Of a DNA stretch of 64,000 nucleotides, positions 10,650-42,699 are shown one piece after another; position 1 is the first letter of the stretch, and the number at the start of each line of letters is the position of its first letter. The stretch covers positions 1,024,001-1,088,000 of the forward strand of contig OY781066.1 of the NCBI GenBank assembly GCA_963676395.1, in the 5' to 3' direction. The translations under genes and the position numbers were made by a program. A model generated the notes under the pieces. It worked only from the letters and a program-made list of their open reading frames with translations, did no database searches and was not told the origin of the DNA. The stretch is from a bacterium. Lineage in GTDB: Bacteria > Fidelibacterota > Fidelibacteria > Fidelibacterales > Fidelibacteraceae.

Positions 10650-10651
10650 AA

Positions 10652-14086: not shown

Positions 14087-14312
14087 AAGTCGCCGGAAGT
14101 TTAGCATTAAAAACAAACAATTCGAACTCAAATGTAAGCAAGAGGAATTAAAAGGCGAAAGGATTTCTTGGAATAAAGGATGTTTTTTTAGCTGTACTAA
14201 AAAATAATTTGCTCCATAATATTTAAAGTGTAATAAATCAAATTTTCCTCAGCCAGAAAACTTAACAAGCCATATTAAAAACTATTTATTTTGTGACTAT
14301 TTAGTGTTTTAT

Positions 14313-23990: not shown

Positions 23991-24012
23991 AAATGTGACC
24001 TGCATCACACTT
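23991..24012 (+). promoter_or_regulatory. CRP/FNR-family-type binding site upstream of comM
   Basis: AAA-TGTGA-CCTGCA-TCACA-CTT, close to the E. coli CRP consensus AAATGTGA-N6-TCACATTT. Confidence 0.75.
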
Positions 24013-24061
24013 TAAAATCTGCTATTTTTTTAGCAGTATTTTTATAGTATTTTTTGTTGGG

Positions 24062-25603
24062 ATGAAAACAATTACGCAATGCTTTTCTGCGGCTTTACAC
24101 GGGATCAAAGCCTACGAGGTCACGATTGAGACTCGCCTAGACCGATCTACACCCAAATATTTTATTGTCGGATTAGCCGAAAAAGCTGTTAAAGAGAGCT
24201 TCTCAAGAATGCTTTCTGCCATAAAATCCAGTAATTATCGAATGCCGGGGTGTAAAATCACTCAAAACCTGGCTCCCGCCGATATACCTAAAGTCGGAAC
24301 GGGGTTTGATCTTTCTTTGGCTCTCGGACTTCTAGCCGGTGGTGAGATAGTTGATGATGAACGCTTGCAAGATTTTATCTGTATTGGTGAGTTAGCCTTA
24401 GATGGTACAATCAGACCTTCAAAAGGCATCCTCCCCATCGCTATAGGTATGAAAGATTTCAATCAAAAAAATTTGATTGTACCCAAAGTCAATGCCCGAG
24501 AAGCTGCAATGCCGGGTTTTTGCACCGTTTGGGGAGCAGAGACGCTCACCGATGCGGTAAATATTATTAATGGTCAAACCGATATTAAACCTGAATCCGT
24601 GGATATTAAAAGCTTCTTTAGAGGGGGCGAAAACCATCAGGTAGACTTCAGTGAAGTCAAGGGACAAGCGCATGTAAAACGCGCTCTGGAAGTCGCTGCG
24701 GCCGGTGGTCATAATATTGTACTCATCGGCCCTCCCGGCTCCGGTAAATCAATGCTTGCAAAGCGATTCCCAACCATACTTCCCGACCTTACTTTGCAAG
24801 AAGCGATGGAAACAACTGCGATCTACTCCGTAGCAGAAGACATTTCGGAAACCAGCCTGATTACCCGAAGACCGTTTCGATCACCACATCATACCGTATC
24901 AGATTCAGCACTGGTGGGTGGTGGCAGAATACCACGTCCGGGAGAAGTAAGTCTTGCCCATAATGGCGTGCTCTTTCTTGATGAATTCCCGGAATTTAAA
25001 AAGAATGTGCTCGAGGTTCTTCGACAACCATTGGAAGATGGGCAAGTTACCATCAGTAGAGCTTTAACCTCCCTGACGTATCCCGCATCATTTATGCTGG
25101 TTGCGGCCATGAATCCCTGTCCCTGCGGTTATGCCAGCGACCCGGATCATGATTGCTCGTGCAGTATCGGTCAAATACACAATTATCTTGCCAGAATTTC
25201 CGGACCATTGTTAGATAGAATAGATCTCCATGTAAATGTACCGCCCGTCAGTTATGAAGAGATCAGTAATAGAGAAGATAGCGAAAAATCGGCTTCTATA
25301 AGGCAAAGAGTGTCAACAGCAAGAGACATTCAAACACAACGATTCAAAAACTATAAGCGAGTGCATTGTAATGCTCAAATGGCAGCAAGAGATATAAAAA
25401 AGTATTGCGAATTGAATGCCGAGTGCAGAGATTTGTTAAAGGTGGCAATTATACGTTTAGGCCTCAGTGCTCGTGCTTACACTCGAATCCTGAAAGTGGC
25501 TCGCACCATAGCAGATCTTGAAGGAATAGAAAATATAAATGCTTCGCACATTTCAGAAGCAATCCATTATAGGAATTTAGACCGACACGAAGGATTGTAT
25601 TAA
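24062..25603 (+). CDS. comM: ComM/YifB Mg-chelatase-like AAA+ ATPase
   Basis: N-terminal Lon-like domain (NLAPAD..K.G..FDL), [47 protein letters not shown]. Confidence 0.95.
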
Positions 25604-25673
25604 TACATCATTTCCTACCATGTCTAGCCTTAACAAATGAAGAAAAGTTGACAATTAAATTAAGGCTTAAAAT

Positions 25674-25704
25674 AAAAAAGGGTGGTCAACCGACACACCC
25701 TTTT
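25674..25704. terminator. Bidirectional terminator between convergent genes
   Basis: AAAAAAGGGTG-GTC-aacc-GAC-a-CACCCTTTT. Confidence 0.75.
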
Positions 25705-25721
25705 ATAATAACCAGACAAAA

Positions 25722-26582
25722 TTAATAAATCGATAAGCCCATAGTAAAACTTGAGGTTGCCAAGTAATTCTCGCCATAACGCTGATTACTTTCACTCCAA
25801 TTTCTATCAGGATATTGCGATTCACCTTTTGAAGTGCCTCCAAGAAATCTCAGATTGGCAAAAACATCCAAACCGGGAATAAGTGTATATCCTGCCCTTA
25901 AAGACGCATCAAGCAGTGAGCCTTCAAACGCAAAACTTGCTCCATTAATGATAGCGGATGATGCATATAATCCGGTCACATCAAAACCAAGAAATGCTCC
26001 CTTTTTAAAATTGTATCGACCACTGACATGTAATGAAGGTACGGGACCCACATTGTTGGCAACTGTCATTTTTTCACCATCTAATGCCTTAAATACTATA
26101 TTGGCATTACGAGCCTGTAATGCAACGCCGGCCGCAATATTTAACCTTTCATTATTCACAAAAGCGTAAGAATAAGTAACCCTGTAAAAAGGGAAACCAT
26201 ACTTAAGTTCCATAGGTGTTCCCGCTGTAAAGGTTATACTATCCATCATAACATCTTCTTTAAATGTTACGTTGCTAATAATTGTCAAAGGTTGATATAG
26301 CAGAGATACCTTATGTTTTTTATTAATTTCCACATTTGCATTGTAGCGATCAAATGGAAACAAAATATCCTGTCCACCTTGTTTTACAAAATCAAAACGT
26401 GTGGCTCCTTCTTCTGTTCTACCTGTTTGAAAGGTGTGGCTTAACACACCAAGCAGACCCGTTTCTATATCAAAAGATATTGTCACATTCTTGTCTGAGT
26501 TATTAATCAATGTCTTTTCAGATGCCATGCCAAATGAAAAGATCAGAACCAAACTCAAAAATATTTTAACAAAATTCTTCAT
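25722..26582 (-). CDS. Hypothetical exported protein, probable outer-membrane beta-barrel (paralog B)
   Basis: Signal peptide, amphipathic beta strands, C-terminal ...GLSIY. Confidence 0.75.
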   Translation of the reverse strand: MKNFVKIFLSLVLIFSFGMASEKTLINNSDKNVTISFDIETGLLGVLSHTFQTGRTEEGATRFDFVKQGGQDILFPFDRYNANVEINKKHKVSLLYQPLTIISNVTFKEDVMMDSITFTAGTPMELKYGFPFYRVTYSYAFVNNERLNIAAGVALQARNANIVFKALDGEKMTVANNVGPVPSLHVSGRYNFKKGAFLGFDVTGLYASSAIINGASFAFEGSLLDASLRAGYTLIPGLDVFANLRFLGGTSKGESQYPDRNWSESNQRYGENYLATSSFTMGLSIY

Positions 26583-26597
26583 ATTATCCTCCGTTCA

Positions 26598-27455
26598 TTA
26601 ATATATGCTTATACCGATAGTAAAGGATGATGTAGATAATACATTTGATGTATAAGATTCTGTAGCTTCGGTCCAAGTCCGTTCAATATATTCCGAATCA
26701 CCTTTCGCAGTACCTCCAAGAAATCTTAGATTTGCAAATACATCTAAGCCTTTACGCAAAGGATAGCCTACTCTGAAAGAAGCATCCAAGATTGATCCTT
26801 CAAAAGAGAATGTTGCACCATTAATAAGCGCCGATGATGCGTATAAACCGGTAGCATCAAGACTTAGATATAAACCATTATCAAAGTCATATCGCCCAAA
26901 TAGGTTGATTGCCGGAACGGGACCAACATTCTGACTGACCTCCATTTGATCGCCGGAAACTTCTTTAAATACAATGGATGCGTTTCTTGCTTGCAAAGCC
27001 AAACCGGCGGCCAATTCGAGATTTTCATTATTTAAAAATAAATATGAATATGTAAACCTGTAAAATGGAAATCCATATTTAATCTCCATCGGCGTGCCAT
27101 CAGCAAAAACCGTTCCATCAATCTGTACATCATCTTTAAAGGTAACATTGCTTATGATCTCAAGAGGTTGATATAAGAAAGACAATTTATGCTTATCGTT
27201 TATTTTCAATCCTGCTACATAGCGATCAAAAGGATATAAGTTATCCTGACCGCCTTGAGTAACAAAATCAAAAGAAGTTGCCCCATCAACTGTACTACCA
27301 GATTGGTAAGTATGTGCTAAAACACCAACTAAACCCGTTTCAACTTCAAAGTTGAATTTCACCTTTGAACCGGAGGTGTTGATCAATGAGTTTTCTGCAA
27401 AGAGGGGAAAGGTTAACAGTGAGAGAGCCATACCAAGAATGATTAATCGTTTCAT
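26598..27455 (-). CDS. Hypothetical exported protein, probable outer-membrane beta-barrel (paralog A)
   Basis: SD AGGAG before MKRLIILG, signal peptide. Colinear with paralog B and ends ...GISIY. Confidence 0.75.
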   Translation of the reverse strand: MKRLIILGMALSLLTFPLFAENSLINTSGSKVKFNFEVETGLVGVLAHTYQSGSTVDGATSFDFVTQGGQDNLYPFDRYVAGLKINDKHKLSFLYQPLEIISNVTFKDDVQIDGTVFADGTPMEIKYGFPFYRFTYSYLFLNNENLELAAGLALQARNASIVFKEVSGDQMEVSQNVGPVPAINLFGRYDFDNGLYLSLDATGLYASSALINGATFSFEGSILDASFRVGYPLRKGLDVFANLRFLGGTAKGDSEYIERTWTEATESYTSNVLSTSSFTIGISIY

Positions 27456-27694
27456 ACTTCGCTCCTTTTTTAATGTATTGTTATAATTAACAATCACTTA
27501 TAAAGAATATTTTTCCACTCGTGTTCCCGAATAATAACAATATACACTATTTTGTTAATTTAATGTTATTATTTTTACCAAAGTGACTGATATTCATTTT
27601 ATTGAGTTTTCCCGCATTCACCAAAATTGTTGTCATTGAGTAGATCAACAAGTATATTGAAGTATAAAAAATATAGTTATTCCAGGAAGTCAAC

Positions 27695-28543
27695 ATGAAG
27701 TATCTCATTAGCTTATTATCACTCTTTTTTCTTACATCCTGTTCGCCGGAATATAAACCTGAAAAAGACCTCTCCTTATATGAGTTAAAAAGCAAAGTCA
27801 ACCATGTCAGCATCTATCACTTCAAAGCCTATGAAGAAAACAGCGAAATAAAAAAAGGCAAGAAAGATCTTAGCGGAGAGCAAGATAAAACTATTTCCTT
27901 TAACAAAAAGGGATTTATTACGCAAATTTACTTTTACGGACAAAGTGACAGTTTAGATACCAAAGTAATTCGAGAGCTTGACGACAAAGGAAATTGTTTA
28001 AAAGAATTAAAATATAATGCCAACGAACAACTCATCGGCGAATGGAATATGACATATGATGAACGTGGTCGTAAAATCCAAAAAGGACGACTTTTAAATA
28101 ACGGTAATATATTCAATTATGCTTTCTTTCATTATGACGATAAAAACAGATTGATCTCAAGAAAAGATTTTTTATATCTGGATTCTCAGCTATATGATTC
28201 TCTTGTATGGACCTATGATAAACGGGATCGTCAAGTCACAGAAGAAAGGTATGGATACCGTGGTAAAACAAGCATGACGAAATTATCATATATCGGTCAA
28301 AGCGAATTAGCAGATTCATTATTTCTATATGACAATAAGGGGGATCTTGCAAATATTATTTTGATAGAATACAATAAACAGGGGCACATGACTAAAGCTA
28401 TTCAATATAATGCCGACACCATCCTTATCGCCAACGTAGAAATCGATTACAAATACGACTCTAAAAAGAACTGGATTAAAAAAACTCAATTCTTTAATCA
28501 GAAAGCTCAACAAATCATTGAACGCAAAATTATTTATTATTAA
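27695..28543 (+). CDS. Hypothetical lipoprotein with YD/RHS-like repeats
   Basis: Lipobox LTS-C. Repeated Y-D-x-x-G/N/D units and C-terminal YKYD..NW.KK...IERKI.YY. Confidence 0.75.
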   Translation: MKYLISLLSLFFLTSCSPEYKPEKDLSLYELKSKVNHVSIYHFKAYEENSEIKKGKKDLSGEQDKTISFNKKGFITQIYFYGQSDSLDTKVIRELDDKGNCLKELKYNANEQLIGEWNMTYDERGRKIQKGRLLNNGNIFNYAFFHYDDKNRLISRKDFLYLDSQLYDSLVWTYDKRDRQVTEERYGYRGKTSMTKLSYIGQSELADSLFLYDNKGDLANIILIEYNKQGHMTKAIQYNADTILIANVEIDYKYDSKKNWIKKTQFFNQKAQQIIERKIIYY

Positions 28544-28558
28544 AGCAAAGGAGATAAA

Positions 28559-28768
28559 ATGAACTCAAAATTATTAAAGATCATTAATCCATTAATGGGT
28601 CTTGCCTTATTTACTGTAATCGTGGTTTTAGCGATCATGAAATTCGGTGAAGTCAGCAAAACACTCGTAGAGATACATGAAATTGCAGGTTACTCATTTA
28701 TTGCCTTAATCCTCATCCATATTTTTCTTAATAGAAAATGGTACAAATCTCTTTTTAAGAAAAAATAA
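28559..28768 (+). CDS. Small two-helix membrane protein (DUF4405-like)
   Basis: SD AAGGAG. IH...G..F..L..IH..LN..W motif. Confidence 0.7.
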   Translation: MNSKLLKIINPLMGLALFTVIVVLAIMKFGEVSKTLVEIHEIAGYSFIALILIHIFLNRKWYKSLFKKK

Positions 28769-28833
28769 AATGTTTTCGGGAACTCCAAACTAAAATCCGC
28801 TTATACAGCTGATACACAAAGGAGGAGTACGTC

Positions 28834-29874
28834 ATGAAGAAGATAGCATTTTTTGATACCAAACCTTATGACAAGCGTTCATTCGAAGAAGTAAATAAAA
28901 ACTTTGGATTTGAAATTAAATATTTCAAGGCGCATTTGCGCGAAGAAACACTTGAATTAACAAAAGGCTTCGATGTCGTATGCGCTTTTGTAAATGATGA
29001 GATCACTGAACCGGTTTTGAATTATCTAAAAAATCATGGAATTGAGCTCATTGCTATGCGCTGTGCGGGTTATAATAACGTCGACCTAAAGGCGGCATAC
29101 AATAATGTTCATGTCATGCGTGTACCTTCCTACTCTCCATATTCTGTAGCTGAACATGCGGCAGCTTTAATTTTGGCATTAAACCGAAAAACACATCGAG
29201 CCTTCTATCGAACCAGAGATAACAACTTTTCAATTGACGGATTAATGGGATTTGATCTTTATCAAAAAACAGCCGGCGTTATTGGAACGGGCAAAATTGG
29301 TCGTATTATGATTGACATTCTTAATGGTTTTGGCATGAAGGTGTTGGCTTATGATCTATACCCCAACGAAGACCATGCAAAAAAACACAATTTTGAATTC
29401 ACAAACCTTGATACCTTATACAAAGAATCAGATGTCATCTCCCTACATTGTCCATTAACACCGGAAACCCATTATTTGATCAACGACGATGCTATTAAGC
29501 AAATGAAAGACGGGGTCCTACTTATTAATACCGGGCGCGGACAACTTATCAATACTAAATCATTGATACATGGCCTTAAATCAGGAAAGATTGGCGGTGC
29601 CGGTCTTGATGTGTATGAAGAAGAAGCCGATTACTTTTTTGAAGATTTTTCTTCTTCAACGATCTCAGATGACATTCTTGCAAGATTAATGACATTCCCA
29701 AACGTTCTCATCACTTCTCATCAGGGATTTTTTACCAAAGAAGCACTGCATAATATCGCAGAAACAAGCCTTCAAAACATCAAAGACTTCTTTGAAGATA
29801 AACCCCTCCATAATGAAATTTGCTACAAACGAGATGGAAATTGTGTAAAACCCGGAAAAAACCGCTGTTTTTAA
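28834..29874 (+). CDS. ldhA: D-lactate dehydrogenase (D-2-hydroxyacid dehydrogenase)
   Basis: MRCAGYNNVD, PSYSP.SVAEHA, GTGKIG, SLHCPL, INTGRG, LDVYEEE, TSHQGF. Confidence 0.9.
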   Translation: MKKIAFFDTKPYDKRSFEEVNKNFGFEIKYFKAHLREETLELTKGFDVVCAFVNDEITEPVLNYLKNHGIELIAMRCAGYNNVDLKAAYNNVHVMRVPSYSPYSVAEHAAALILALNRKTHRAFYRTRDNNFSIDGLMGFDLYQKTAGVIGTGKIGRIMIDILNGFGMKVLAYDLYPNEDHAKKHNFEFTNLDTLYKESDVISLHCPLTPETHYLINDDAIKQMKDGVLLINTGRGQLINTKSLIHGLKSGKIGGAGLDVYEEEADYFFEDFSSSTISDDILARLMTFPNVLITSHQGFFTKEALHNIAETSLQNIKDFFEDKPLHNEICYKRDGNCVKPGKNRCF

Positions 29875-30101
29875 GTCAGAAAACACTTCTCCATTATAGA
29901 ATCTAAAACAGTAATCGAAATTCAATATTCGAAATTAACTGAGAAGGTTGAACATTTTTCTGCGAAAATGCTATGTAAAGACAGGTATCCCATCACCGCT
30001 TATGACTTTTTTCCTAAATTTCCAACACTCTCCTCTTTGCTAATGCCGTAGAAAAGCAGACAATTTATAATTCGTAATTATTTTTTTCTTAAAATTGTTT
30101 C

Positions 30102-30130
30102 TTGTCTCTTGACATTGTAAGTAGTATTTT
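30102..30130 (+). promoter_or_regulatory. Sigma70-type promoter of the P-loop protein/membrane protein pair
   Basis: TTGTCT-17 nt-TATTTT, with SD AGGAG downstream. Confidence 0.5.
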
Positions 30131-30158
30131 ACTGTTTAGAATTTTTTAGGAGTAAATT

Positions 30159-30878
30159 ATGAACAAGCATTTTGAGATTATTATTCTCATGGGACGCCCC
30201 GCAGCGGGAAAATCAGAAGTAATTGATTATTTAAAGAAAACACCGGTTAATGAACGCCTGGATCGCTTTCATGTTAACAATTTTGAGGAAATTGATGATT
30301 TCCCAATGTTGTGGACTTGGTTTGAAGAAGATGCCATTCTTGAAAAGATCATGAACAAACCTCGTGTCCATTCCGATTCAGATGGTTATTTTCTACACGA
30401 CTATCAATGGAATCTTTTGATCGAGCGAATTTCTTTTGAATATCAAAAGAAATTACGTGACGAAGAATATGCAGAAAACACAACAACTATTCTTGAATTC
30501 AGCCGTGGCTCTGAACATGGCGGCTATGAATCAGCTTTCCAATCTTTGTCTGAAGACATTCTTAAAAAAGCATGTATCCTTTACATAGACGTTCCCTATG
30601 AAGAATCACTTCGTAAAAATCGTCGTCGTTTTAACCCTGATCGCCCCGATTCAATTTTGGAACACGGTTTACCCGATGAAAAAGTTGAACGACTTTACAA
30701 AGAGATAGACTGGGAAACATTTAAAGGTGATGATCCCGAATTTATCCATTTTGGTGACCACAAAGTTCCCTATGTTGTTTTAAATAACATGCCGGAAGTA
30801 ACGATCTATCCAGAAAAACTAGGTCCTGCTCTCGAAGAACTGTTTACTAAACTTTGGGATATTAAAAACAAAAAATAA
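30159..30878 (+). CDS. Uncharacterised P-loop NTPase, nucleoside/nucleotide kinase-like
   Basis: Walker A GRPAAGKS after a hydrophobic strand, ILEFSRG, and lid-like ILYIDV..EES.RKNRRR. Confidence 0.75.
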   Translation: MNKHFEIIILMGRPAAGKSEVIDYLKKTPVNERLDRFHVNNFEEIDDFPMLWTWFEEDAILEKIMNKPRVHSDSDGYFLHDYQWNLLIERISFEYQKKLRDEEYAENTTTILEFSRGSEHGGYESAFQSLSEDILKKACILYIDVPYEESLRKNRRRFNPDRPDSILEHGLPDEKVERLYKEIDWETFKGDDPEFIHFGDHKVPYVVLNNMPEVTIYPEKLGPALEELFTKLWDIKNKK

Positions 30879-30888
30879 CGAGGTAATT

Positions 30889-31926
30889 TTGGGTAAATCA
30901 AAATTCGCACAATTCTTATCAAACAACAGTATATGGGGCTTTGCTTTTGGTTATTTTGCTTGCTACGTCCCTTACAGTTTGCTTACAAAGATCATGAGCA
31001 AAGGGTTGCTCCCATCTTTAGATGGTCATGGGCTTGCAGGCTTCTCCATTCTACCTGTAACGGCTATTGCAACACTTCTTACGATGATTATCGTCATCTC
31101 TGTTTTGGGTTGGTGGAAGTATGCCAAACATTCAACAGTGTTTGGTATCTCAATACCTCATCCCACAAAGTGGACATTACTATCAGGTATTTTCACATCT
31201 CTGATCATTGGTACTACCACACTCGCTTATACCTTTGAAGGTGTCAGTATTGTATTTGCCATGCTTCTAATGCGTGGTGGTGTATTAATTATTGCTCCCA
31301 TTGTTGATACATTGACAAAACGTCATGTTAGATGGTTCTCATGGATTGGTCTTTTAGGTGCATTATGTGCGCTTCTTGTGGGAATTGCCGGAACAAAAGA
31401 TTTTAACATTCCTGTTATGCTTGCTGCTGTTATCGCAGTATATCTTTTCTCATACTTCATGCGTTTTCAGTTTATGAGCAAGAATGCTAAATCTGATAAA
31501 AAAGAAGTAAATCTTAGATACTTTGTTGAAGAACAAATGGTTTCCACTCCTGTTCTTGTGATCTTCCTCGCCTTAATGACTTTGCTTAAAGGTGATGTTG
31601 GAGAAGCACTTAGAATGGGTTGGACAATACACTGGGGACAGCCTTATCTATGGGCACTATTGCTGATAGGTATGCTTTCGCAAGGAACCGGTTTCTTTGG
31701 AACTTTGGTATTTCTTGATAAATCAGAAAATGCTTACTGCATACCCGTCAACCGTTCCTCAAGTATTCTTGCCGGTGTTATTGCATCGTTTCTATTGTCA
31801 CTCTTTCCCAATCAGAGCATGCCGGGCACGTCTCAGTTGATTGGAGCAGGTATTATTATTATATCTATCCTCTTCCTGACTATCCCACCTGTTCTTCAGG
31901 CAAGAAAAGACAAAGCAAAGGTGTAA
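30889..31926 (+). CDS. Ten-helix membrane protein, DMT/EamA-like transporter
   Basis: About 10 hydrophobic segments in two halves. TTG start with SD GAGGT, 10 nt after the kinase-like gene. Confidence 0.65.
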   Translation: MGKSKFAQFLSNNSIWGFAFGYFACYVPYSLLTKIMSKGLLPSLDGHGLAGFSILPVTAIATLLTMIIVISVLGWWKYAKHSTVFGISIPHPTKWTLLSGIFTSLIIGTTTLAYTFEGVSIVFAMLLMRGGVLIIAPIVDTLTKRHVRWFSWIGLLGALCALLVGIAGTKDFNIPVMLAAVIAVYLFSYFMRFQFMSKNAKSDKKEVNLRYFVEEQMVSTPVLVIFLALMTLLKGDVGEALRMGWTIHWGQPYLWALLLIGMLSQGTGFFGTLVFLDKSENAYCIPVNRSSSILAGVIASFLLSLFPNQSMPGTSQLIGAGIIIISILFLTIPPVLQARKDKAKV

Positions 31927-31944
31927 TTAAAAACCTAATATATT

Positions 31945-31974
31945 AAGCCCCGGAAATCAATCCGGGGCTTTTTT
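31945..31974 (+). terminator. Intrinsic terminator
   Basis: AAGCCCCGGA-aatcaa-TCCGGGGCTT-TTTT. Confidence 0.9.
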
Positions 31975-32100
31975 GTTTATCATATTGCACCTCCAACAAA
32001 TCTTCAAACCCAAATACTTTTTCCTTTTAACTTTTTCCTTTTAGCATGAATCATTTTATATTCCCGTGTTATTTGAATTTTACACACACAGGAGTTTAAC

Positions 32101-32718
32101 ATGATTTTAACAGACATTTTGGTCATGATTCTGGCATATCTGATCGGTTCGTTCCCTGCTGCATGGGTCTTGGGGAAGATCTTTGGGGGAAAGAACTATG
32201 ATATCCGCCAGCATGGCAGTGGTAATGTCGGCACAACCAATGTTATCAGAAACCTTGGCTGGAAAGCGGGTTTGGTAACCTTTTTACTTGATGCGTTTAA
32301 AGGTTTTGCCGTAGCCTTTTGGATGCCACAGCTAATTAGTCAGGAATTTGAAACAGCTAGAGTTATTTTAGCCACTATCGTTCTTATTGGACACACGTAT
32401 CCCATCTATATTAATTTTCGTGGCGGGAAAGCCGTTGCAACTACAGCTGGTATTATTTTTGCATTCCGTCCGGAAGTCGGGTTGTTTTGTCTGGCAATTT
32501 TTATCATTGTTGTTTTACTTTCAAGACAATCGGGGGTTGGTTCAATATCGGCATCTATTGCCTTTCCAATAGCGAACTTACTATACAAATATGCATTTAA
32601 TATGGAAATTTCCAATCAAATGCTATGGTTCAGTATTCTTCTGCCACTCTATATTATTTTCACACATCGTGAAAATATTGCAAAGATTATACGCAAAGAG
32701 AATAAAAAGGATTTTTAA
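32101..32718 (+). CDS. plsY: Glycerol-3-phosphate acyltransferase PlsY
   Basis: YLIGS.P, DIR.HGSGN.G.TN..R, D..KG, GH.YP, FRGGKAVAT, HRENI. Confidence 0.95.
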   Translation: MILTDILVMILAYLIGSFPAAWVLGKIFGGKNYDIRQHGSGNVGTTNVIRNLGWKAGLVTFLLDAFKGFAVAFWMPQLISQEFETARVILATIVLIGHTYPIYINFRGGKAVATTAGIIFAFRPEVGLFCLAIFIIVVLLSRQSGVGSISASIAFPIANLLYKYAFNMEISNQMLWFSILLPLYIIFTHRENIAKIIRKENKKDF

Positions 32719-33105
32719 ATGCTAGAAGTCGTTGCCGGGATCATAATAAGTGATAAGGGTGTCCTGCTCTGTCAACGACATCATGATTCTCGTCGATTTC
32801 CTTTAAAATGGGAATTCCCCGGTGGAAAAGTTGAAGCCGGGGAATCACCCTCTCATGCCATTGTTCGAGAATTGCATGAAGAGCTTGGAATAAATGTTAA
32901 AAAAACCAAGCTTCTCTTCGACTATCAATTTGCCTACCCGAACGAGGAAGCTATTCATTTGTACTTTTATAATATTCTAAGCTACTCGGAAAAAATCCAA
33001 GATCTCCAATTTGAAAAAATTGAATGGGTCTCAGCTGAAAATCTTAAAGCATATGACATCCTTAAAGGTGACATGCCTTTTCTTGATCTATATTTTAATT
33101 TTTAA
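32719..33105 (+). CDS. Nudix hydrolase, MutT/NudG-like
   Basis: Nudix box WEFPGGKVE.GESP..A..RELHEELG. Confidence 0.9.
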   Translation: MLEVVAGIIISDKGVLLCQRHHDSRRFPLKWEFPGGKVEAGESPSHAIVRELHEELGINVKKTKLLFDYQFAYPNEEAIHLYFYNILSYSEKIQDLQFEKIEWVSAENLKAYDILKGDMPFLDLYFNF

Positions 33106-33107
33106 GC

Positions 33108-35498: not shown

Positions 35499-36252
35499 AG
35501 TCTAACCCCATGTTTTTAATATCTTCAAATCTATCGTAAGCGGTCAAATTAAACTGTACCGGCGTTACTGAAATATAATTGTTTTTTAGCACAGTATCAT
35601 CAATTCTTTCATCTTCTTTTCCTTGACGCTTCACACCCGTCATCCAATAATATATTCTATCTTTGGGGTCTTTGCGCTTTTCAAAAGCCTCCTGCCAATG
35701 CGCCATTCCCTGCTCAGTAATTTTAACACCTTTGATTTGTGATGCATCTTTTACATTAGGCATATTTACATTAAGCAAAACACCTTTTGGGCTTCCCTTT
35801 TCAAGAATGGTTTTCACCAAGTGCCGGACAAAAGGTAAAACAGGCTCCCAACTGGGATTATGAAAAGTATCAAGACTCAATGCTATGGCGGGAATCCCGT
35901 TAAAAGTTGCCTCTGCCGCAGCTCCTACGGTTCCCGAATAAATAACATTTAATCCCGAGTTACTACCAAGATTTATCCCGGAAATGACCAAATCGGGTTT
36001 TTCGGACAAAATTTCAGTCAAGGCAAGCTTTACACAATCCGCGGGTGTACCATTTACTGCAACACCTTCAAATAAATCAGTCTTAACATTTCGCACTTGG
36101 ATAGATCTATCAAGCGTTAAGGCATGAGATACCGCAGAACGTTCACCGTCAGGAGCAACCACATCAATTTCAGCGATATCCTGAATTGTTTCATAAAGCT
36201 TATTGATACCCGGAGCAAATATTCCGTCATCATTTACAAGTAAAATTTTCAC
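35494..36252 (-). CDS. surE: 5'/3'-nucleotidase SurE
   Basis: ILLVNDDG..APG, VVAP..ERSA.S, GTPADCV, SGIN.G.N, YSGTVGAA.E. Confidence 0.97.
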   Translation of the reverse strand: MKILLVNDDGIFAPGINKLYETIQDIAEIDVVAPDGERSAVSHALTLDRSIQVRNVKTDLFEGVAVNGTPADCVKLALTEILSEKPDLVISGINLGSNSGLNVIYSGTVGAAAEATFNGIPAIALSLDTFHNPSWEPVLPFVRHLVKTILEKGSPKGVLLNVNMPNVKDASQIKGVKITEQGMAHWQEAFEKRKDPKDRIYYWMTGVKRQGKEDERIDDTVLKNNYISVTPVQFNLTAYDRFEDIKNMGLDY

Positions 36253-36695
36253 TGCTTCTGTATCTCCATTGTCATGATCAGCGCATCTGCCTGATCATAT
36301 TGATAATATTTTTTTCGTCTTCCCACTTGCTTGAAATTATTTTTTTCGTAAAACCTGATTGCACTTAAATTATTCTCATTTACCTCTAAGGTAATAAAAG
36401 CCGCATCATGCTGTCGACCAAACGCCAGCATTTTGTCTAACAACTTCTGAGCCAAGCCTTGCCTGCGACAATGTTCATCTACAGCAATGTTATTTAAATG
36501 CATTTCATCGGCAATTAGCCAAAAACAAACATATGCTTTAATCTTATCGTCAACTAATGCTACCCAGTTATGAGATGTTTTGGTATACAGCTCAAAGTAA
36601 AAATGCATCTCTGCCCAAGGTTCATAAAAGGAAGTTCTTTCAATCCTCATTACCTCAAAAACATCGTCGGCATGCATATTGCGAATGTGGACCAT
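36249..36695 (-). CDS. rimI: RimI-type N-acetyltransferase
   Basis: GNAT motifs NIAV...RRQGLA, LEV...N..A..FY, GRRKKYY...DA..M. Sits in the tsaE-tsaB-rimI context. Confidence 0.9.
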   Translation of the reverse strand: MVHIRNMHADDVFEVMRIERTSFYEPWAEMHFYFELYTKTSHNWVALVDDKIKAYVCFWLIADEMHLNNIAVDEHCRRQGLAQKLLDKMLAFGRQHDAAFITLEVNENNLSAIRFYEKNNFKQVGRRKKYYQYDQADALIMTMEIQKQ

Positions 36696-36697
36696 GA

Positions 36698-37342
36698 TTA
36701 CTCAGACTTCCATTCCTTGGGCTTATAAGCCATACCATATTCCAACACCAACGAATCATAGTCAGTACCGGCACTTTCATTTTTATATTTCAAATAGTAA
36801 TCGGCCATCATTGAAGCCATAATATCCTGCTCAACAATAGGAATGTTTTCCACCTCGGGTAAAGGATCATTACAAATGATCTGCGTACAATCAGGATACC
36901 ATTCGGCTATATCTTTAATTTGACCATAACGGATCTCTATTTCGCTAACAGGATCATGATATGCTGCCGTATAGATATAATCTTTATGTGAACGAATGAC
37001 CCATAAAGGTTTATTGCGAAGATCTGCTTTGTTCAATGTTGCATCCATATATGCTGTCATGGTATTTACTCCGGCCAGAGGAATACGATGAGGATATACC
37101 AACCCTTTTGCAAAACTCATACCTATCCTTAACCCGGTAAAAGAGCCGGGGCCGGCAGAAACAACCACAGCTTTAAGCTTTGGTACTCTAATTTTCTGTT
37201 CCTGAAACAGTTGATCGACAAGTCCGACTAATTTTTCAGCATGTACTCGAGCTTCTTTTAAATGAAGCTCAGCTATAAGCTCTCCATTCTCATGTAAGGA
37301 AGCACCACAAATTAGGGATGACGTTTCTAATGCCAAGATCAT
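36698..37342 (-). CDS. tsaB: t6A biosynthesis protein TsaB
   Basis: ILALETS, HAE.L, GPGSFTGLRIG..AKGL. Confidence 0.95.
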   Translation of the reverse strand: MILALETSSLICGASLHENGELIAELHLKEARVHAEKLVGLVDQLFQEQKIRVPKLKAVVVSAGPGSFTGLRIGMSFAKGLVYPHRIPLAGVNTMTAYMDATLNKADLRNKPLWVIRSHKDYIYTAAYHDPVSEIEIRYGQIKDIAEWYPDCTQIICNDPLPEVENIPIVEQDIMASMMADYYLKYKNESAGTDYDSLVLEYGMAYKPKEWKSE

Positions 37343-37786
37343 TTATAACTCCAATTCTCTGGGCGAACGGACCTCGATCCGACGCTCTTTATCATCAATA
37401 TACTCTAAATGCAATTCTATCGTATCATTCGGGACATGAGGTCCAATCTGCTCAGGCCATTCAATAAGCACAATACCGTCTTTTACCAGATACTCCTCAA
37501 AGCCCAGCATAATAATCTCATCAGGGTGTTTAATACGATAACAATCAAAATGAAAAATAGGAAGATCACCATAATACTCATTAATAAGCGTAAAAGTAGG
37601 TGACGTAGCTTCCTGATCGGCCTTTAAATATTCACACACACCTTTTGTGAATGTTGTTTTCCCCGCAGCAAGATCGCCCCAAAGTGTGATCACATCGTTG
37701 GCTTCCAGTAAAGCTGCAAACTTGCGACCAAAGGCTATTGTTTCTTCGGGAGACTCGGTTTTTATAATGTAAGTATGCTTTTTCAT
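37343..37786 (-). CDS. tsaE: t6A biosynthesis ATPase TsaE
   Basis: GDLAAGKTTF, SPTFTLINEY, HFD.YR, LIEWP. Confidence 0.97.
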   Translation of the reverse strand: MKKHTYIIKTESPEETIAFGRKFAALLEANDVITLWGDLAAGKTTFTKGVCEYLKADQEATSPTFTLINEYYGDLPIFHFDCYRIKHPDEIIMLGFEEYLVKDGIVLIEWPEQIGPHVPNDTIELHLEYIDDKERRIEVRSPRELEL

Positions 37787-39351
37787 CGTTTTGGACTCAA
37801 TTTTGCAACAGGTAGGATCATTTCATCCATGGAAATACCACCATGCTGAAATGTACCAGGATATTGTTTCTCGTATTTTTTTATATTGTTCGGATATAAA
37901 AAGAAATAATCGTCTTTAGCAAAGATATAAGTACTGGTCAAATTTGTTTGAGGCAATCTGTATCGGGCGGTATCTTTTACAAAAACCGCGGCTTTACTGG
38001 AGACAACTAAATTTCGTCCGCTTTTGTATCGAACCGAGTCTGTTGAATCTCGGTCAGCCTTTACAACTGACCCTTTGTTCACCCTGATACTACCATGATC
38101 CGAAGTGACCACAACTTCAAAACCTGCGTCTCCCGCTTCTTCTATAATACGACGAAGGTATGAGCCTTCCATCCAATTTCTTACAACATTTCGATAGCCG
38201 GCTTCATCCGGTACGATCTCCATTAATACATCGGAGGCCGAACGCTTATGCGCAAGAATATCCACAAAATTAGCAACCAAAACAATCAGATCATTATTCT
38301 TGATATCGGAAAAACGATTTGCAAGATTATCGCCGTATTTTGAATCGGATACTTTATGAAATGAATGTCCTTTTTTTAAATGTAATCTTTCTTTCCTTAA
38401 ATAATCGGTGATCAACTTATCTTCATAGCGGTTCATGCTTTCTTCGCTATCGGGATTTGCATAAAGATCAGGATATTTGACATTAATGGCATCCGGGTAC
38501 ATCCCGGCAAAAATTGCATTTCTAGAGTAAGGTGTTGCCGTAGGTAAAATTGAAATATGCGAATTCAATTCAACGTCAAATTGATTATAGAATAACGGTG
38601 CAACAGCCAACCAATGATCATACCTAAGACAATCGATTAGCACAAACAACGTTTTTTTCCCTTTTTTAAGAAGAGGACTGACAAACTTATCAAGCACCTG
38701 GGGTGACATAGGGACATCGGGCGAATGTTGTACCCAGTCTACATATTTATCACTAACCAATCGTTGGAATTCTTTGTTTGCGGATTCATGCAATTCATTT
38801 AAAAAATGTTCAAGATCATACTGAGTATTCTTTGCAAATTCTATACGCCAACTTGCGATCCTATCATGAATTGTAGACCATCGCTCCAATGAATTGATCC
38901 CTTCGAACAATTCCATAGTTACATTTTGGTAAAAGCTCATAAATTCGCGAGCTTTAACTTCTCGGGATATATCGGCTGAATCTAAATTCTTCTTTAAGGA
39001 CAATAAAACTTGCGAAGGGTTGATGGGTTTGGTGAGGTAATCAGATATTTCTTTACCAATCGCATCCTCCATCAAAGATTCTTCTTCGTTTTTTGTGATC
39101 ATGATCGCCGGCATACCGGGACGAAGTTCTCTGATTTTTTCCAGAACCGCTAAACCATCAAGCCCGTCCATCATTTCATCTAAAAGAGCGGCAGATACAT
39201 ATTCATGCTTAATAATTTCTAAAGCATCAACACCATTGGTCGCTGTTTTCACTTCGTATCCCTTTTCTTCAAGGAACATGATATGCGGACGCAACAATTG
39301 AATTTCGTCATCTACCCATAAAATCGTATGTTTGTTCGTGTTTTCTGTCAT
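37783..39351 (-). CDS. porX: PorX-like response regulator (REC + PglZ/alkaline-phosphatase domain)
   Basis: ILWVDDEI..L.PH, MITKNEEE, IDCLRYD, SILPTATPYSRNAIF, SDHG, FQHGGIS. Lies upstream of tsaE, as in Bacteroidota. Confidence 0.88.
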   Translation of the reverse strand: MTENTNKHTILWVDDEIQLLRPHIMFLEEKGYEVKTATNGVDALEIIKHEYVSAALLDEMMDGLDGLAVLEKIRELRPGMPAIMITKNEEESLMEDAIGKEISDYLTKPINPSQVLLSLKKNLDSADISREVKAREFMSFYQNVTMELFEGINSLERWSTIHDRIASWRIEFAKNTQYDLEHFLNELHESANKEFQRLVSDKYVDWVQHSPDVPMSPQVLDKFVSPLLKKGKKTLFVLIDCLRYDHWLAVAPLFYNQFDVELNSHISILPTATPYSRNAIFAGMYPDAINVKYPDLYANPDSEESMNRYEDKLITDYLRKERLHLKKGHSFHKVSDSKYGDNLANRFSDIKNNDLIVLVANFVDILAHKRSASDVLMEIVPDEAGYRNVVRNWMEGSYLRRIIEEAGDAGFEVVVTSDHGSIRVNKGSVVKADRDSTDSVRYKSGRNLVVSSKAAVFVKDTARYRLPQTNLTSTYIFAKDDYFFLYPNNIKKYEKQYPGTFQHGGISMDEMILPVAKLSPKR

Positions 39352-39565
39352 TTGGCTAATTTACTCCTAAAATTGATTGATACAAAGTGATTTGCGCAGG
39401 ACTGTTGTATTTATTCAAGGGGTCAATTCTTTGTTCCCGAATCCTAAAAAGTATATAATCTGATGCCTGGAGCTATTGAGCTCATAACCCACATACTTAT
39501 TTCGATTTATCTTTGTCGATTTGTATTATTTGCGTAATATATCTTTTGGTAAACACGGATAACTA

Positions 39566-40528
39566 ATGGGTAAACTGTCTAATCCTCCTGTCTTTCAGGG
39601 GTCCCTCAGCAAAAAATCGTATTTTGAAGGTTGGTACATAAAATGTCTCAGCGATGACCTCAGTTCGTCCATAGCTTTTATTCCGGGCATTTCGCTCGGC
39701 AAAGATCCGCATGCATTTATTCAGATTAATCGCTCAGATAACCAAAGCCAATATTTACGCTTCCCGATAGACTCATTCACATTCGAAAAAAACATGTTCG
39801 CGGTAGCGATAGAAAACAACTACTTTTCTGATCGTGGACTAAAGCTTTCTTGCAGAAACTCCGATATTTCTTTAACCGGCGAATTGGTGTTTGACAATGT
39901 TCAAACATATCCTTCCCGTTTTTTAGCACCCGGCATCATGGGGGTATTTACCTACATCCCCTTTATGCAATGCTACCATGGCGTCGTATCTATGCGTCAT
40001 CGCATCAAAGGTGTATTAAGTATCGATGGTGAAGATCTAGGCTTTGAAAATGGTATTGGCTATATAGAAAAAGACTGGGGCCGCTCATTTCCGGAGTCCT
40101 GGGTTTGGATGCAGGCCAATCCTTTTCAAGATTCCGAAACTACTTTTATGCTTTCTATTGCAAAAGTCCCTTGGATGGGTGTATGGTTTACCGGCATGAT
40201 CGGATTTTTAAACGATGGAAAAAACACCTACCGCTTCGCTACCTATCTGGGTGATAGCGTTTCTTTTCTGGAAGAAGATGACGGTGGTGTTTATATTCAT
40301 GTTAAAGGACCTAAATATCATCTTCGTGTCTATGGTGAATTCGGTGAAGGTGGTGCGCTGCTCGCCCCCACAAAAGGACAAATGTCGCGCACTATCAAAG
40401 AAAGCTTAAATTCCACCCTACATGTAGAACTTACCGATAAACGCCATAATGTGATCTTTCACGACACCTCACATATTGCAGGTTTGGAAATTTGCGGTGA
40501 TGTTGAAAAGTTATGCCCAAATCAATAA
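39566..40528 (+). CDS. Tocopherol-cyclase-family protein
   Basis: YFEGWY.K, AFIPGIS, GIMG.F...PFM.CYHG..S, GYIEKDWG.SFP..W.W.Q. Confidence 0.85.
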   Translation: MGKLSNPPVFQGSLSKKSYFEGWYIKCLSDDLSSSIAFIPGISLGKDPHAFIQINRSDNQSQYLRFPIDSFTFEKNMFAVAIENNYFSDRGLKLSCRNSDISLTGELVFDNVQTYPSRFLAPGIMGVFTYIPFMQCYHGVVSMRHRIKGVLSIDGEDLGFENGIGYIEKDWGRSFPESWVWMQANPFQDSETTFMLSIAKVPWMGVWFTGMIGFLNDGKNTYRFATYLGDSVSFLEEDDGGVYIHVKGPKYHLRVYGEFGEGGALLAPTKGQMSRTIKESLNSTLHVELTDKRHNVIFHDTSHIAGLEICGDVEKLCPNQ

Positions 40529-40531
40529 AGC

Positions 40532-41866
40532 TTATTTTACTTGCATAGTTAATTGTACCCCTTCGGATCGAATCAGAATTCCAATGATCACTTTTTCAAA
40601 TTGATATTCATAAACCAAATCCAAAAACATGCCTTCGTTATATCCGGCTTTGCGAATGGAATAACTCGAGCAACTTAAGGGGCGTAAATAATAAAGATCA
40701 CTTTTTGCTCCTGCACTTTGACTAACCTGAACCAACAATTTATTTCTGCTATTTACATATGAAACACGACAAAAAGCAGTGTAAGAATAAACATCAAACA
40801 CATTATTTTGTATCTGGACAGCTAATTTAATTTTTTTACTAACCTTTGCTTTAATTCCAAATTTTAATATGATCTGTTGACGATATTGCCACTGCAATAA
40901 ATAGGGAAAATCATCAGAATTGCTTAACTCGGCACGGTATCTGTAATTGCATGCGACACTCATATTGATCTTTTTGTATCGTGCAGATAAATCAACCAGA
41001 ATTTTATCTTCACTTACTCTTTCACCATAAACTCTGGTCGCTGACATTCTTAGTTTTACACGAGTTTTCTCACAAGATATTCCCGCAGACAATCCGTATC
41101 CTCCCGCTTTTAATGCCGAACCCCACTTGCTATCACTTTTTAATGCTTTAAAATTCTTTCCCAGATACACTGAAGATAAGTATAGCTTTACCTTCCTTTC
41201 ACGATAAAATAAATCACTCATCAGGTGGTTCACTCCAAACTCGCTCAACGAAAGATCGATCCCTAAGCGACAATTCTTTTTAGCATACTGAAAATAACTT
41301 TCGATGGTACAGGTATCTAAAAAATATATAAATGTACCGGCATTTATATTATTGTGATCATAATTAATTCCACTTACATATCGATCGTCCCAACGAAAAA
41401 AACTCAAACTAAGATCTCGATAGCAGCCTCTTATAACAACTATATCCTTATGATAAAAATTATTTTGTATTCTGCATTTTGCTTTGTACAAACCAACATT
41501 TGTTGTCGGATCTGCCGTAAAACCCATCATTGTATTTCCAAGCAAAACCCCACAAGCAATATGTGGCAATCCATGTCCACGCATAATCGAAAAATATTTT
41601 CCTTCGTATGCAAACGAACAACAGTGCTTAATACCACTCCCATCTCCCTCACTTAATTGATAAAGATCAAAATGTCCCCGACTAATGTGGGCTTTTGCAC
41701 GGTATAGCAGCTGTTCTCCCATCGTTAAACGACAACTTAACTGTCCCATATCTTCTGTTTCTTGAAAAAACTGCTTTGATAATAATTCCGGGTATAAATC
41801 ATTCTGTGCATTTGCAAACCAAAAAACCGGAAGCAGGTAAAGTATTCTCCAATACTTAAAGAACAT
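40532..41866 (-). CDS. Hypothetical exported beta-strand-rich protein, resembling the barrel part of FCB 'helix-hairpin-helix/ComEA-like' outer-membrane proteins
   Basis: Start at MFFKYWRIL (signal-like, overlaps the upstream stop). Amphipathic strands. The segment G..PH.ACGVLLG recalls the GDY...GQGL.L motif of that family (from memory). No HhH motif seen. Confidence 0.55.
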   Translation of the reverse strand: MFFKYWRILYLLPVFWFANAQNDLYPELLSKQFFQETEDMGQLSCRLTMGEQLLYRAKAHISRGHFDLYQLSEGDGSGIKHCCSFAYEGKYFSIMRGHGLPHIACGVLLGNTMMGFTADPTTNVGLYKAKCRIQNNFYHKDIVVIRGCYRDLSLSFFRWDDRYVSGINYDHNNINAGTFIYFLDTCTIESYFQYAKKNCRLGIDLSLSEFGVNHLMSDLFYRERKVKLYLSSVYLGKNFKALKSDSKWGSALKAGGYGLSAGISCEKTRVKLRMSATRVYGERVSEDKILVDLSARYKKINMSVACNYRYRAELSNSDDFPYLLQWQYRQQIILKFGIKAKVSKKIKLAVQIQNNVFDVYSYTAFCRVSYVNSRNKLLVQVSQSAGAKSDLYYLRPLSCSSYSIRKAGYNEGMFLDLVYEYQFEKVIIGILIRSEGVQLTMQVK

Positions 41867-42629
41867 AAGCCAATACCAGTTTTTCACCAAAACCAAGATA
41901 CGAATGCTCTGTGAATTCCAGCAATAAACACCATGATCGTATTTTAAGCTGACAATTGACACATAATTGGGTGGAGTGTAATCTATATTTTGCCGCGCAA
42001 GAAAAGCAATCAAAAGGTTTGTAGCTTAGACCGATTCCGGGATCCCAGGCCAAAGATCTATACTTGTTAACATCCAAACTTAACTTTAATTTGGGAAACA
42101 GATCCACAGAAGCATAGGCGCCGATCCTTGCATCGTTTATATAAATGGCGCTGTCAGTGGGGAAACTTAAAAAATCATAGGTATAAATCCCGATCTTCCA
42201 GTGTTCTTGGGGCATTATTTCTAAAGCCGATGAAACAGAGCCTTGATGTTTGTAATCTATACCATATAAAAATGAACACGTGTAATGAACGTGAATACCG
42301 GCATAAACTTGCTTTTCATGTAAAACCGGAAAACCCAAAGTTATTTTATGGTTTGACATCAGGGGATGAATTTGACTTTTTATTGAAACATCCAGTCCCG
42401 TCCATCCGGCATAAATTAGTGCTTCGTGAACATCATATCCGTGATATACCGGCGACCAAAGTGTAACAACTGCAAAAGAATCTGGATACAAACATGGACT
42501 TTCTGGCAGGCTCAGAATATCATCGTTCCCACCTAAGTGCATATCATTTGAGATATTCCAGGAAACGGCAAAAATAAACACAACCTGTACTAAGCACAGA
42601 ATGAAATATGTCAGTTTCGTCCCGCTCAT
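41856..42629 (-). CDS. Hypothetical exported protein, probable outer-membrane beta-barrel
   Basis: Signal peptide (MSGTKLTYFILCLVQVVFIFA), amphipathic strands, C-terminal H.YLG......Y pattern. Confidence 0.6.
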   Translation of the reverse strand: MSGTKLTYFILCLVQVVFIFAVSWNISNDMHLGGNDDILSLPESPCLYPDSFAVVTLWSPVYHGYDVHEALIYAGWTGLDVSIKSQIHPLMSNHKITLGFPVLHEKQVYAGIHVHYTCSFLYGIDYKHQGSVSSALEIMPQEHWKIGIYTYDFLSFPTDSAIYINDARIGAYASVDLFPKLKLSLDVNKYRSLAWDPGIGLSYKPFDCFSCAAKYRLHSTQLCVNCQLKIRSWCLLLEFTEHSYLGFGEKLVLAYVL

Positions 42630-42636
42630 TTCAAGC

Positions 42637-42665
42637 AAATTACGTTTTGTAAGGCTTCAAGTCAA
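42637..42665 (-). promoter_or_regulatory. Sigma70-type promoter, leaderless
   Basis: Minus strand TTGACT-17 nt-TAATTT-7 nt-ATG(42629). Confidence 0.65.
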
Positions 42666-42677
42666 TGGCTTAAATTG

Positions 42678-42699
42678 AAGTGTGACCTGCATCACATTT
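42678..42699 (-). promoter_or_regulatory. CRP/FNR-family-type binding site, second copy
   Basis: Plus strand AAG-TGTGA-CCTGCA-TCACA-TTT. The 16-bp core is identical to 23994-24009. Confidence 0.75.

Follow-up and report, generated by a model that had tools for sequence, protein, structure and literature searches.

A CRP-type box upstream of comM and a predicted outer-membrane barrel pair: a probable transformation and recombination regulon in a genus of Fidelibacterota

Does a CRP-family activator induce comM together with a pair of uncharacterised outer-membrane genes, and could this pair then belong to a DNA-uptake system? The question is raised by a 64,000-nucleotide (nt) stretch of contig OY781066.1 (positions 1,024,001 to 1,088,000; hereafter the window) from a genus of uncultured bacteria of the Fidelibacterota/Marinisomatota. 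A sequence-only reading of the window had noticed the same CRP-type box upstream of both loci and proposed a natural-competence regulon. The genome holding the window (G000; 2.34 Mb, one contig, 95%-complete; called open reading frames (ORFs) covering 90%) contains the transformation and recombination genes comEC, dprA, comM, comEA, comF, and recA; no pilin or pilus ATPase was found in it. The passage of DNA through the outer membrane in bacteria of the FCB group without type IV pili has been called unclear (PMC11532111). Our analysis of the box, its targets, and its conservation favours a CRP-activated transformation and recombination regulon as the probable reading.

The box and its promoters

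The 16-mer TGTGACCTGCATCACA occurs at 23994-24009 and 42681-42696, its sole two copies in G000. In gene direction, both boxes read AAATGTGA-N6-TCACACTT; the spacer is inverted from one locus to the other, being CCTGCA before comM and TGCAGG before the barrel pair. The two boxes are the only perfect TGTGA-N6-TCACA matches in the window. The features of the two loci are as follows (PWM, position weight matrix; aa, amino acids; AF2, AlphaFold2).

23991..24012, plus strand: 22-bp CRP-type box upstream of comM (PWM score 31.7, the joint top score)
24048..24053, plus strand: predicted -10 hexamer of comM, TATTTT, 46.5 nt from the box centre
24062..25603, plus strand: comM (YifB-type AAA+ helicase), 513 aa, likely leaderless (Pfam PF01078, PF13541, PF13335; ATG 8 nt past the -10 hexamer)
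42678..42699, minus strand: 22-bp CRP-type box upstream of the barrel pair
42660..42665, minus strand: predicted -35 hexamer of the barrel pair, TTGACT, 23.5 nt from the box centre, with a 17-nt spacer to the -10 hexamer
42637..42642, minus strand: predicted -10 hexamer of the barrel pair, TAATTT
41856..42629, minus strand: barrel A, 257 aa, with a hydrophobic helix at the N-terminus and a predicted 14-stranded outer-membrane barrel of PorV-like type (AF2 pLDDT 82)
40532..41866, minus strand: barrel B, 444 aa, predicted ~24-stranded outer-membrane barrel, overlapping the end of barrel A (AF2 pLDDT 87)

The box centres lie at 24001.5 (comM) and 42688.5 (barrel pair), each 46.5 nt from the -10 hexamer and, respectively, 60.5 and 59.5 nt from the ATG. 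The -35 position of comM (24025-24030) is poor (TTTTTT). The 16-mer positions, the -10 hexamers, the 46.5-nt distance, the roughly 60 nt to the ATG, and the missing Shine-Dalgarno (SD) sequence at either ATG were thus all re-found as the sequence-only reading had described them.

In the window alone, allowing one mismatch, the pattern occurs 3 times against a mean of 2.2, and this count was dropped as evidence, being at chance level. Across G000, perfect TGTGA-N6-TCACA occurs 25 times, against a mean of 1.55 for the other spacers of 1-30 (spacer 0, with a count of 13, lies outside this control range), and 19 of the 25 sites are outside called ORFs. A matrix built from these 19 intergenic sites reads AAR-TGTGA-Y-S-W-W-S-R-TCACA-YTT, and the 40 sites scoring >=12 on it are referred to as the top sites. 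The box is therefore an over-represented, intergenic 22-bp palindrome of the TGTGA-N6-TCACA type, as expected of an operator. Its identity at two loci, on which the sequence-only reading had leaned, carries no such weight. Five identical spacer pairs are present among the 25 sites, and in simulation at least one pair arises with P = 0.86; identical pairs are common because the spacer is constrained. The motif stood, and the 16-mer identity at comM and the barrel pair was rejected as chance. From its sequence, the box is very probably the site of a CRP-family activator.

The position of the box relative to the promoter is fixed. The top sites have 80 flanks, and in 23 of these TAnnnT starts 46.5 nt from the centre, against an average of 2.5 and at most 7 for other offsets; 8 further flanks have it at +47, and TT[G/T] starting 23.5 nt from the centre was also found in 23 of the 80. 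The overall layout is box, -35, 17-nt spacer, and -10, with the in-phase -10 at +46 present in 22 of the 40 top sites. In six other genomes of the genus, TAnnnT occurs at +46 in 34 of 194 flanks (mean elsewhere, 4.4). In a second class, the -10 lies one turn further, at +56/57, as for recA in 14 of 18 genus loci and for dprA and uvrD in G000. Both arrangements are seen at priA, whose boxes are degenerate (1-3 mismatches): of the 10 scorable genus loci (2 too-short loci were left out), 3 have a box-like site 57 nt from the ATG and the -10 at +46, and the other 7 have the site 67-68 nt from the ATG and the -10 at +56/57, a one-turn shift. If the -10 starts at -12, the box centre would be at about -58.5 or -68.5, with start sites predicted from sequence; the former is 3 bp closer than the E. 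coli value, the lac CRP site being at -61.5 (PMC6728893). A fixed phase upstream of the -35 would satisfy the need of a class I activator. The ATG lies 5-8 nt past the -10 at comM, barrel A, priA, and the DUF2851 gene, so the missing SD probably reflects leaderless transcripts. In some relatives, the leader is ~10 nt longer with a G-rich SD, and the box-to-promoter distance is unchanged.

Conservation of the box and the single CRP

Upstream of orthologs, the box is kept throughout the genus, as the sequence-only reading required. With at most one mismatch, it precedes comM in 20/20 genus loci (G021 was read by eye from the flank, and two genus genomes with split comM were left out) and barrel A in 16/17, the 17th having two mismatches; outside the genus, 0/10 comM loci score above zero and 0/11 barrel A loci carry it. 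The comEC box is present in 19/20 genus loci vs 0/6 outside (four 5'-truncated comEC loci were left out). The recA box (<=2 mismatches, at 94-111 nt) occurs in 18/18 genus loci, 11 of them with <=1 mismatch, and in 0/12 outside at that place. Perfect boxes number 3-37 per genome (median 17) in 22 genus genomes and 0-7 (median 3) in 19 others, in which no systematic search for another shared motif was made; a reversed-pattern control gave 0-3 per genome.

The sole cNMP-binding protein in G000 is a 225-aa CRP (G000:C1:1854210-1854887 = L010:5210-5887). Its recognition helix, T/S-R-E-T/S-V-x-R, aligns with SRETVGR of E. coli CRP (RESVCR in G000, RETVSR in most relatives), with the equivalents of R180, E181, and R185 present. 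In 17/17 genus loci, crp has a box 602-645 nt upstream, ahead of a gerW/ytfJ-like gene and within the preceding coding sequence; a one-mismatch match was found at 2 of the 12 crp loci outside the genus. A full-length CRP-family regulator with a matching helix, itself boxed upstream, is thus at hand, as the sequence-only reading had supposed. Another HTH_Crp match was rejected as a regulator: its gene is truncated, neighbours an hcp fragment, and encodes no full cNMP domain; at this place (L012:4983-5880), a truncated hcp (prismane) gene and the truncated Crp-type gene stand back to back, an apparent deletion remnant. In G005 and G021, crp is split by a frameshift, likely an assembly error because recA, dprA, and priA are split there too.

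An alignment of 23 CRP orthologs from 30 loci showed that the Arg82 equivalent of the phosphate-binding cassette is Ala or Cys in 13/13 genus CRPs and Arg in 10/10 outside. The genus CRPs contain 4-10 cysteines each, the others 0-2, and an unrooted tree, which does not give the order of events, splits the two groups by a long branch with 100/100 support. Several of the genus cysteines are located around the pocket and the C-helix (L010, L086-L102). A redox- or metal-sensing role for the genus CRP is possible. Full Sxy was not found in G000, in which TfoX_N occurs alone in a 127-aa unboxed ORF and TfoX_C is absent. LexA was not found in G000 and, as a separate observation, was not found in 24 of the 25 genomes of the family, boxless genera included.

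The closest known parallel is the CRP-S/Sxy regulon of Haemophilus, Vibrio, and E. coli, which likewise uses a CRP-family factor, a 22-bp palindrome, and a class I-like distance, and shares the targets comM, dprA, rec2/comEC, and ssb (PMC1635313, PMC6728893). In contrast, the genus half-sites are TGTGA, not TGCGA; only an unboxed stand-alone TfoX_N is present; the CRP lacks the cAMP arginine; the site is ~3 bp closer than -61.5, in another phylum; and type IV pilus genes (no pilin or pilus ATPase being found), comEA, comF, and radC are not among the targets. The Haemophilus/Vibrio analogy drawn by the sequence-only reading was therefore borne out for CRP-type control of competence genes and failed for the half-site, full Sxy, and the cAMP arginine; because these tests and that of the pilus genes fail, the genus regulon is set apart from CRP-S/Sxy. 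DdrI of Deinococcus radiodurans, SdrP of Thermus, and CrpPg of Porphyromonas gingivalis are also cAMP-free CRP-family regulators (PMC6300522, PMC12040651), and DdrI has CRP-like sites before DNA-repair genes (PMC6300522). Their pockets are described as blocked by bulky residues, unlike the genus CRP, in which the arginine is replaced by Ala or Cys and cysteines are gained; the parts of these papers available describe no comM/comEC regulon, and the CrpPg paper does not use the word competence (PMC6300522, PMC12040651).

Boxed genes and competing explanations

In G000, 61 of 1844 genes (3.3%) have a box with <=1 mismatch within 300 nt upstream. To name the targets, 143 proteins flanking 36 sites were scanned (71 with NCBIfam; 105 with Pfam, among them the other 70-odd and those left unnamed), and the direction of each target was assigned from the in-phase -10. 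The -10 is in phase at comM, the barrel pair, the comEC operon, the DUF2851 gene, priA, scpA, and topA; it is at +47 for ssb and at +56 for dprA, recA-recX, and uvrD. The priA operon continues with a GIY-YIG gene and then mutS2, scpA is upstream of recN (the next gene but one), and ssb is divergent from uvrC. The third gene of the comEC operon (L007:7959-9011) encodes an RNase HII-YraN fusion; YraN is described as the partner nuclease of ComM (PMC13663708). Other in-phase targets encode two type IX secretion system (T9SS)-tailed proteins (360 and 364 aa), a 783-aa lamin-tail protein, and a 258-aa probable lipoprotein, and lptB-rpoN, a CYTH cyclase gene, IS200 and REP-type transposase genes, four-helix IVP genes or remnants, and a GIY-YIG gene are in phase too. 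Sites before gerW-crp, rex, and hydG are without the +46 element. recG has a half site in G000 and a full site in G019. Five candidate targets (dNK, yebC-ruvC, PEPCK, radA, and rpsT/namZ) were withdrawn, as either the in-phase -10 points in the other direction or the remains of a broken four-helix gene intervene.

When six relatives were surveyed without bias for perfect boxes, the genes recovered were that of the 258-aa lipoprotein at 5 loci, the DUF2851 gene at 4, the gene of the 360-aa T9SS-tailed protein at 3, and comEC, dprA, and rex at 2 each. The variable part of the regulon consists mostly of small accessory genes. Among 22 hand-picked downstream ORFs, 19 have a Pfam match: ORF6N (4, plus one fragment), IVP (3), Phd (2), DUF4160 (2), Y1 transposase (2), and one each of RhuM, GIY-YIG, PDDEXK_3, DUF6364, and AlbA_2. 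The DUF2851 gene (L012:6030-7271) is likely leaderless, is boxed in G000 and four relatives, and ends in a Cys/His cluster; it is a candidate for a new recombination or uptake factor. Transposase, four-helix IVP, ORF6N, Phd, GIY-YIG, and RhuM genes and broken IVP remnants are found behind box-plus-promoter units (L001, L005, L008, L011, L013, L014, L023, L119-L209), and many boxes in relatives are at contig ends.

Several results weigh against a dedicated competence regulon. Many targets are outside competence, namely lptB-rpoN, the T9SS-tailed proteins, the lipoprotein, the CYTH cyclase, hydrogenase genes, and the transposase, four-helix IVP, ORF6N, Phd, and GIY-YIG genes. comEA (encoding 123 aa, located behind dnaJ), comF, and radC are unboxed in G000, and the dprA box (<=1 mismatch) is present in only 4 of 13 genus loci (0/14 outside; three 5'-truncated loci were left out). 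No -10 at +46 was seen at 18 of the 40 top sites, the site before gerW-crp included. CRPs outside the genus have the same recognition helix with no box enrichment, so the helix alone is no proof of the binder. The genomes compared are related, not independent samples, and the genus counts therefore measure conservation, not repeated origin. The competence reading was supported, with qualifications: comEC and dprA are boxed; comEA, comF, and radC are not, no pilin was found, and the regulon is wider than competence.

Could the boxes instead serve a CRP-driven response to DNA damage or replication stress that has replaced LexA in the family, with comM and comEC riding along and the barrels in another envelope role? 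LexA scores above the cut-off in 1/25 family genomes vs 14/16 outside; recA, priA, uvrD, ssb/uvrC, topA, and scpA are boxed, as are mobile-type genes; and DdrI, a cAMP-independent regulator (PMC12040651), binds CRP-like sites before recN, pprA, and uvsE (PMC6300522). However, uvrA, uvrB, umuC, mutS, mutL, ruvB, recR, recJ, and mfd, located via characteristic motifs, are unboxed in G000 (PWM at most 0), neither LexA nor boxes before uvrA, uvrB, and umuDC were found there as in a LexA-controlled SOS response, and the transformation-specific comM and comEC have some of the strongest and best-kept boxes. We regard this explanation as unlikely; it is also compatible with transformation, since damage could signal competence. 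Less likely still is that CRP runs an ordinary global regulon for starvation or stationary phase, with DNA taken up as a nutrient and the barrels importing another polymer. The motif is nearly the E. coli CRP consensus, and hydG, a hydrogenase operon, an aminotransferase-PEPCK operon, and the CYTH cyclase gene all have boxes nearby. Yet no sugar-catabolism operon was identified among the 143 flanking proteins, the cAMP arginine is gone in all 13 genus CRPs aligned, the in-phase -10 faces away from PEPCK, dNK, and yebC-ruvC, and the nucleotidase-containing operon described below is unboxed. The sequence-only reading had named a mainly catabolic set of hits as a result that would speak against it; the sites fall instead before comEC, dprA, recA, ssb, priA, and uvrD.

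That Rex or another repressor, not CRP, binds the box is very improbable. In core spacing, the box agrees with the Rex consensus TTGTGAANNNNTTCACAA (PMC6391272), and one site, conserved in G011 and G019, precedes rex itself. On the other hand, 47 of 50 half-sites have T or C directly after TGTGA, where Rex wants A (3/50), which excludes Rex for most sites; G000 contains one Rex-type site, and no regulon of TTGTGAA-N4-TTCACAA operators was found. The arrangement is that of an activator, since in most cases the entire box is upstream of the -35 and its phase is constant, and a box is upstream of crp in 17/17 loci. Rex may explain only the rex site and perhaps the hydrogenase sites. The rex site (L029:4248-4959) has an A/T-rich spacer and is probably a Rex operator overlapping the CRP motif class.

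Under the favoured reading, a CRP-activated transformation and recombination regulon, the single full-length CRP of the genome would bind the genus-wide palindromes at a fixed helical phase upstream of sigma70-type promoters and co-activate comM, comEC, recA, priA, its own operon, and the genes of the two predicted outer-membrane barrels. Bound at about -58.5 or -68.5, the dimer would recruit RNA polymerase as class I activators do, and several targets would be transcribed leaderless. It would act without cAMP or full Sxy, perhaps controlled by its own level, given the box upstream of gerW-crp, or by its many cysteines. This would be a second, apparently independent recruitment of a CRP-family factor to competence genes, differing in its ligand pocket, in the lack of full Sxy, and in a shift of the activation distance.

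The barrel pair and other candidate uptake genes

No family was assigned to barrel A or barrel B by Pfam, NCBIfam, and PDB sequence searches; word-seeded homolog searches returned almost nothing, and a representative search returned 30 proteins, none >467 aa. In structure comparison, the highest TM scores of barrel A (0.65-0.66) were to chain F of the T9SS entries 8gl6/6h3i, which we take to be PorV, and the lowest E-values were to OmpG and Omp33. G000 encodes at least eight PorV-like paralogs elsewhere. Barrel A and the T9SS PorV/SprA translocon are alike in the PorV-like 14-strand fold encoded beside a larger barrel; barrel A is ~100 residues shorter than the matched chain, and barrel B is far smaller than SprA, having the size of a 24-strand usher pore. 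In barrel B, the predicted barrel starts at residue 39 and is without an N-terminal plug. Its nearest folds are the FimD/PapC usher pores (Z 18.3/17.1; root-mean-square deviation 5.0 over 330 aligned residues for the Z 18.3 match), a likeness of the predicted model that shows size, not function. Twelve columns of barrel B are basic in >=70% of 38 sequences, which is compatible with a DNA path and no proof of one.

Among 121 genomes searched, 21 genomes of the order have clear homologs of barrel B and 2 others have weak ones, and the relatives with barrel B are labelled Neomarinimicrobiota/Fidelibacterota, i.e. Marinisomatota of the FCB group. The two weak matches (E 9e-6) are 598-aa barrels with a PorV-like gene upstream (L360), and these match a 675-aa barrel with an HHH_3 domain (E 1e-9). 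Profile comparison by hhalign linked barrel B to the 598/675-aa family with P=75.7 and E=2.4e-5, pairing its conserved G-x-G-x5-G-x2-L-G block with the DYMLEFGQG block of the family; an 819-aa HhH barrel of G000 is linked to the same family about equally (P=72.6). Barrel A matched the 300-aa barrel encoded beside that HhH barrel over its full length (P=92.7, E=4e-7). From these profile links and the shared gene order, the boxed pair resembles a PorV-like barrel and ComEA-barrel pair in a form that evolves fast and has no HhH domain. The ~720-aa 'HhH' ORFs of other Marinisomatota were dropped as barrels, since they begin like what we take to be Tex/S1 proteins.

The 819-aa HhH barrel and the 300-aa barrel belong to a phylum-wide six-gene operon (L263:3086-13999 = G000:C1:1591086-1601999, minus strand) encoding, in order, an LTD-PKD protein with a T9SS tail, an LTD-OB-DUF5689 protein, the 300-aa PorV-like barrel, the 819-aa HhH barrel, a FadL-like barrel, and a 5'-nucleotidase. 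It is 40-75% identical across the Marinisomatota loci examined. The operon has the look of a unit that binds, imports, and salvages DNA, and it is similar to the transformation genes of Riemerella. We assume that the HhH proteins RA0C_RS02645 of Riemerella and PGN_0421 of Porphyromonas belong to the HhH-barrel family. In the pilus-less machinery of Riemerella anatipestifer and P. gingivalis, transformation requires the HhH protein, and the step at the outer membrane does not resemble a pilus; like the genus, these bacteria use ComEC, DprA, ComF, RecA, YifB/ComM, and an HhH protein (PMC8459023, PMC11532111). The available parts of these papers describe no regulator, and the channel proposed for Riemerella is a barrel with a carboxypeptidase regulatory domain and a DUF5689 partner, unlike the boxed PorV-like barrel and HhH-less barrel (PMC8459023, PMC11532111).

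The case for the barrel pair as the DNA gate is weakened by several findings. Barrel B has no HhH domain and no Pfam match, its link to the canonical family is weak, and compared directly with the 819-aa HhH barrel its profile gave no match (P=0.3). The six-gene operon, the most Riemerella-like uptake set in G000, is unboxed, and in other genera the barrel pair is present without the box at 11 loci. Taking the models and these results together, we put the gate forward tentatively, as rather doubtful. In the least certain part of the mechanism, barrel B would be the DNA-entry pore and barrel A its PorV-like partner, replacing pilus and secretin; DNA would then pass to stand-alone ComEA and ComEC, and DprA, RecA, and ComM-YraN would integrate it.

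The widest form of the proposal is more speculative again. In one genus of a LexA-less family, a phylum-wide cAMP-type CRP might have become a cysteine-rich master activator of competence that is blind to cAMP. Its regulon might expose an FCB outer-membrane DNA gate, in which a PorV-like barrel is paired with a ~24-strand pore of the ComEA-barrel family, and might supply DUF2851, the 360-aa T9SS-tailed protein, and the 258-aa lipoprotein as new candidates; small mobile genes with the same promoter might fire upon recombination. In the open-access literature, we found no competence regulator for Marinisomatota and no PorV-like barrel tied to transformation. A regulon this sharp and conserved offers a short list of candidate parts for cultured FCB relatives.

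Two further loci in the window deserve mention. At 25722-27455 (minus strand), two tandem paralogous exported proteins of ~286 aa, with no Pfam match, converge on comM; their sequence suggests outer-membrane barrels. At 9495-14131 (minus strand), dnaE is directly followed by a spore-photoproduct-lyase-like radical SAM gene, and the region upstream is unboxed.

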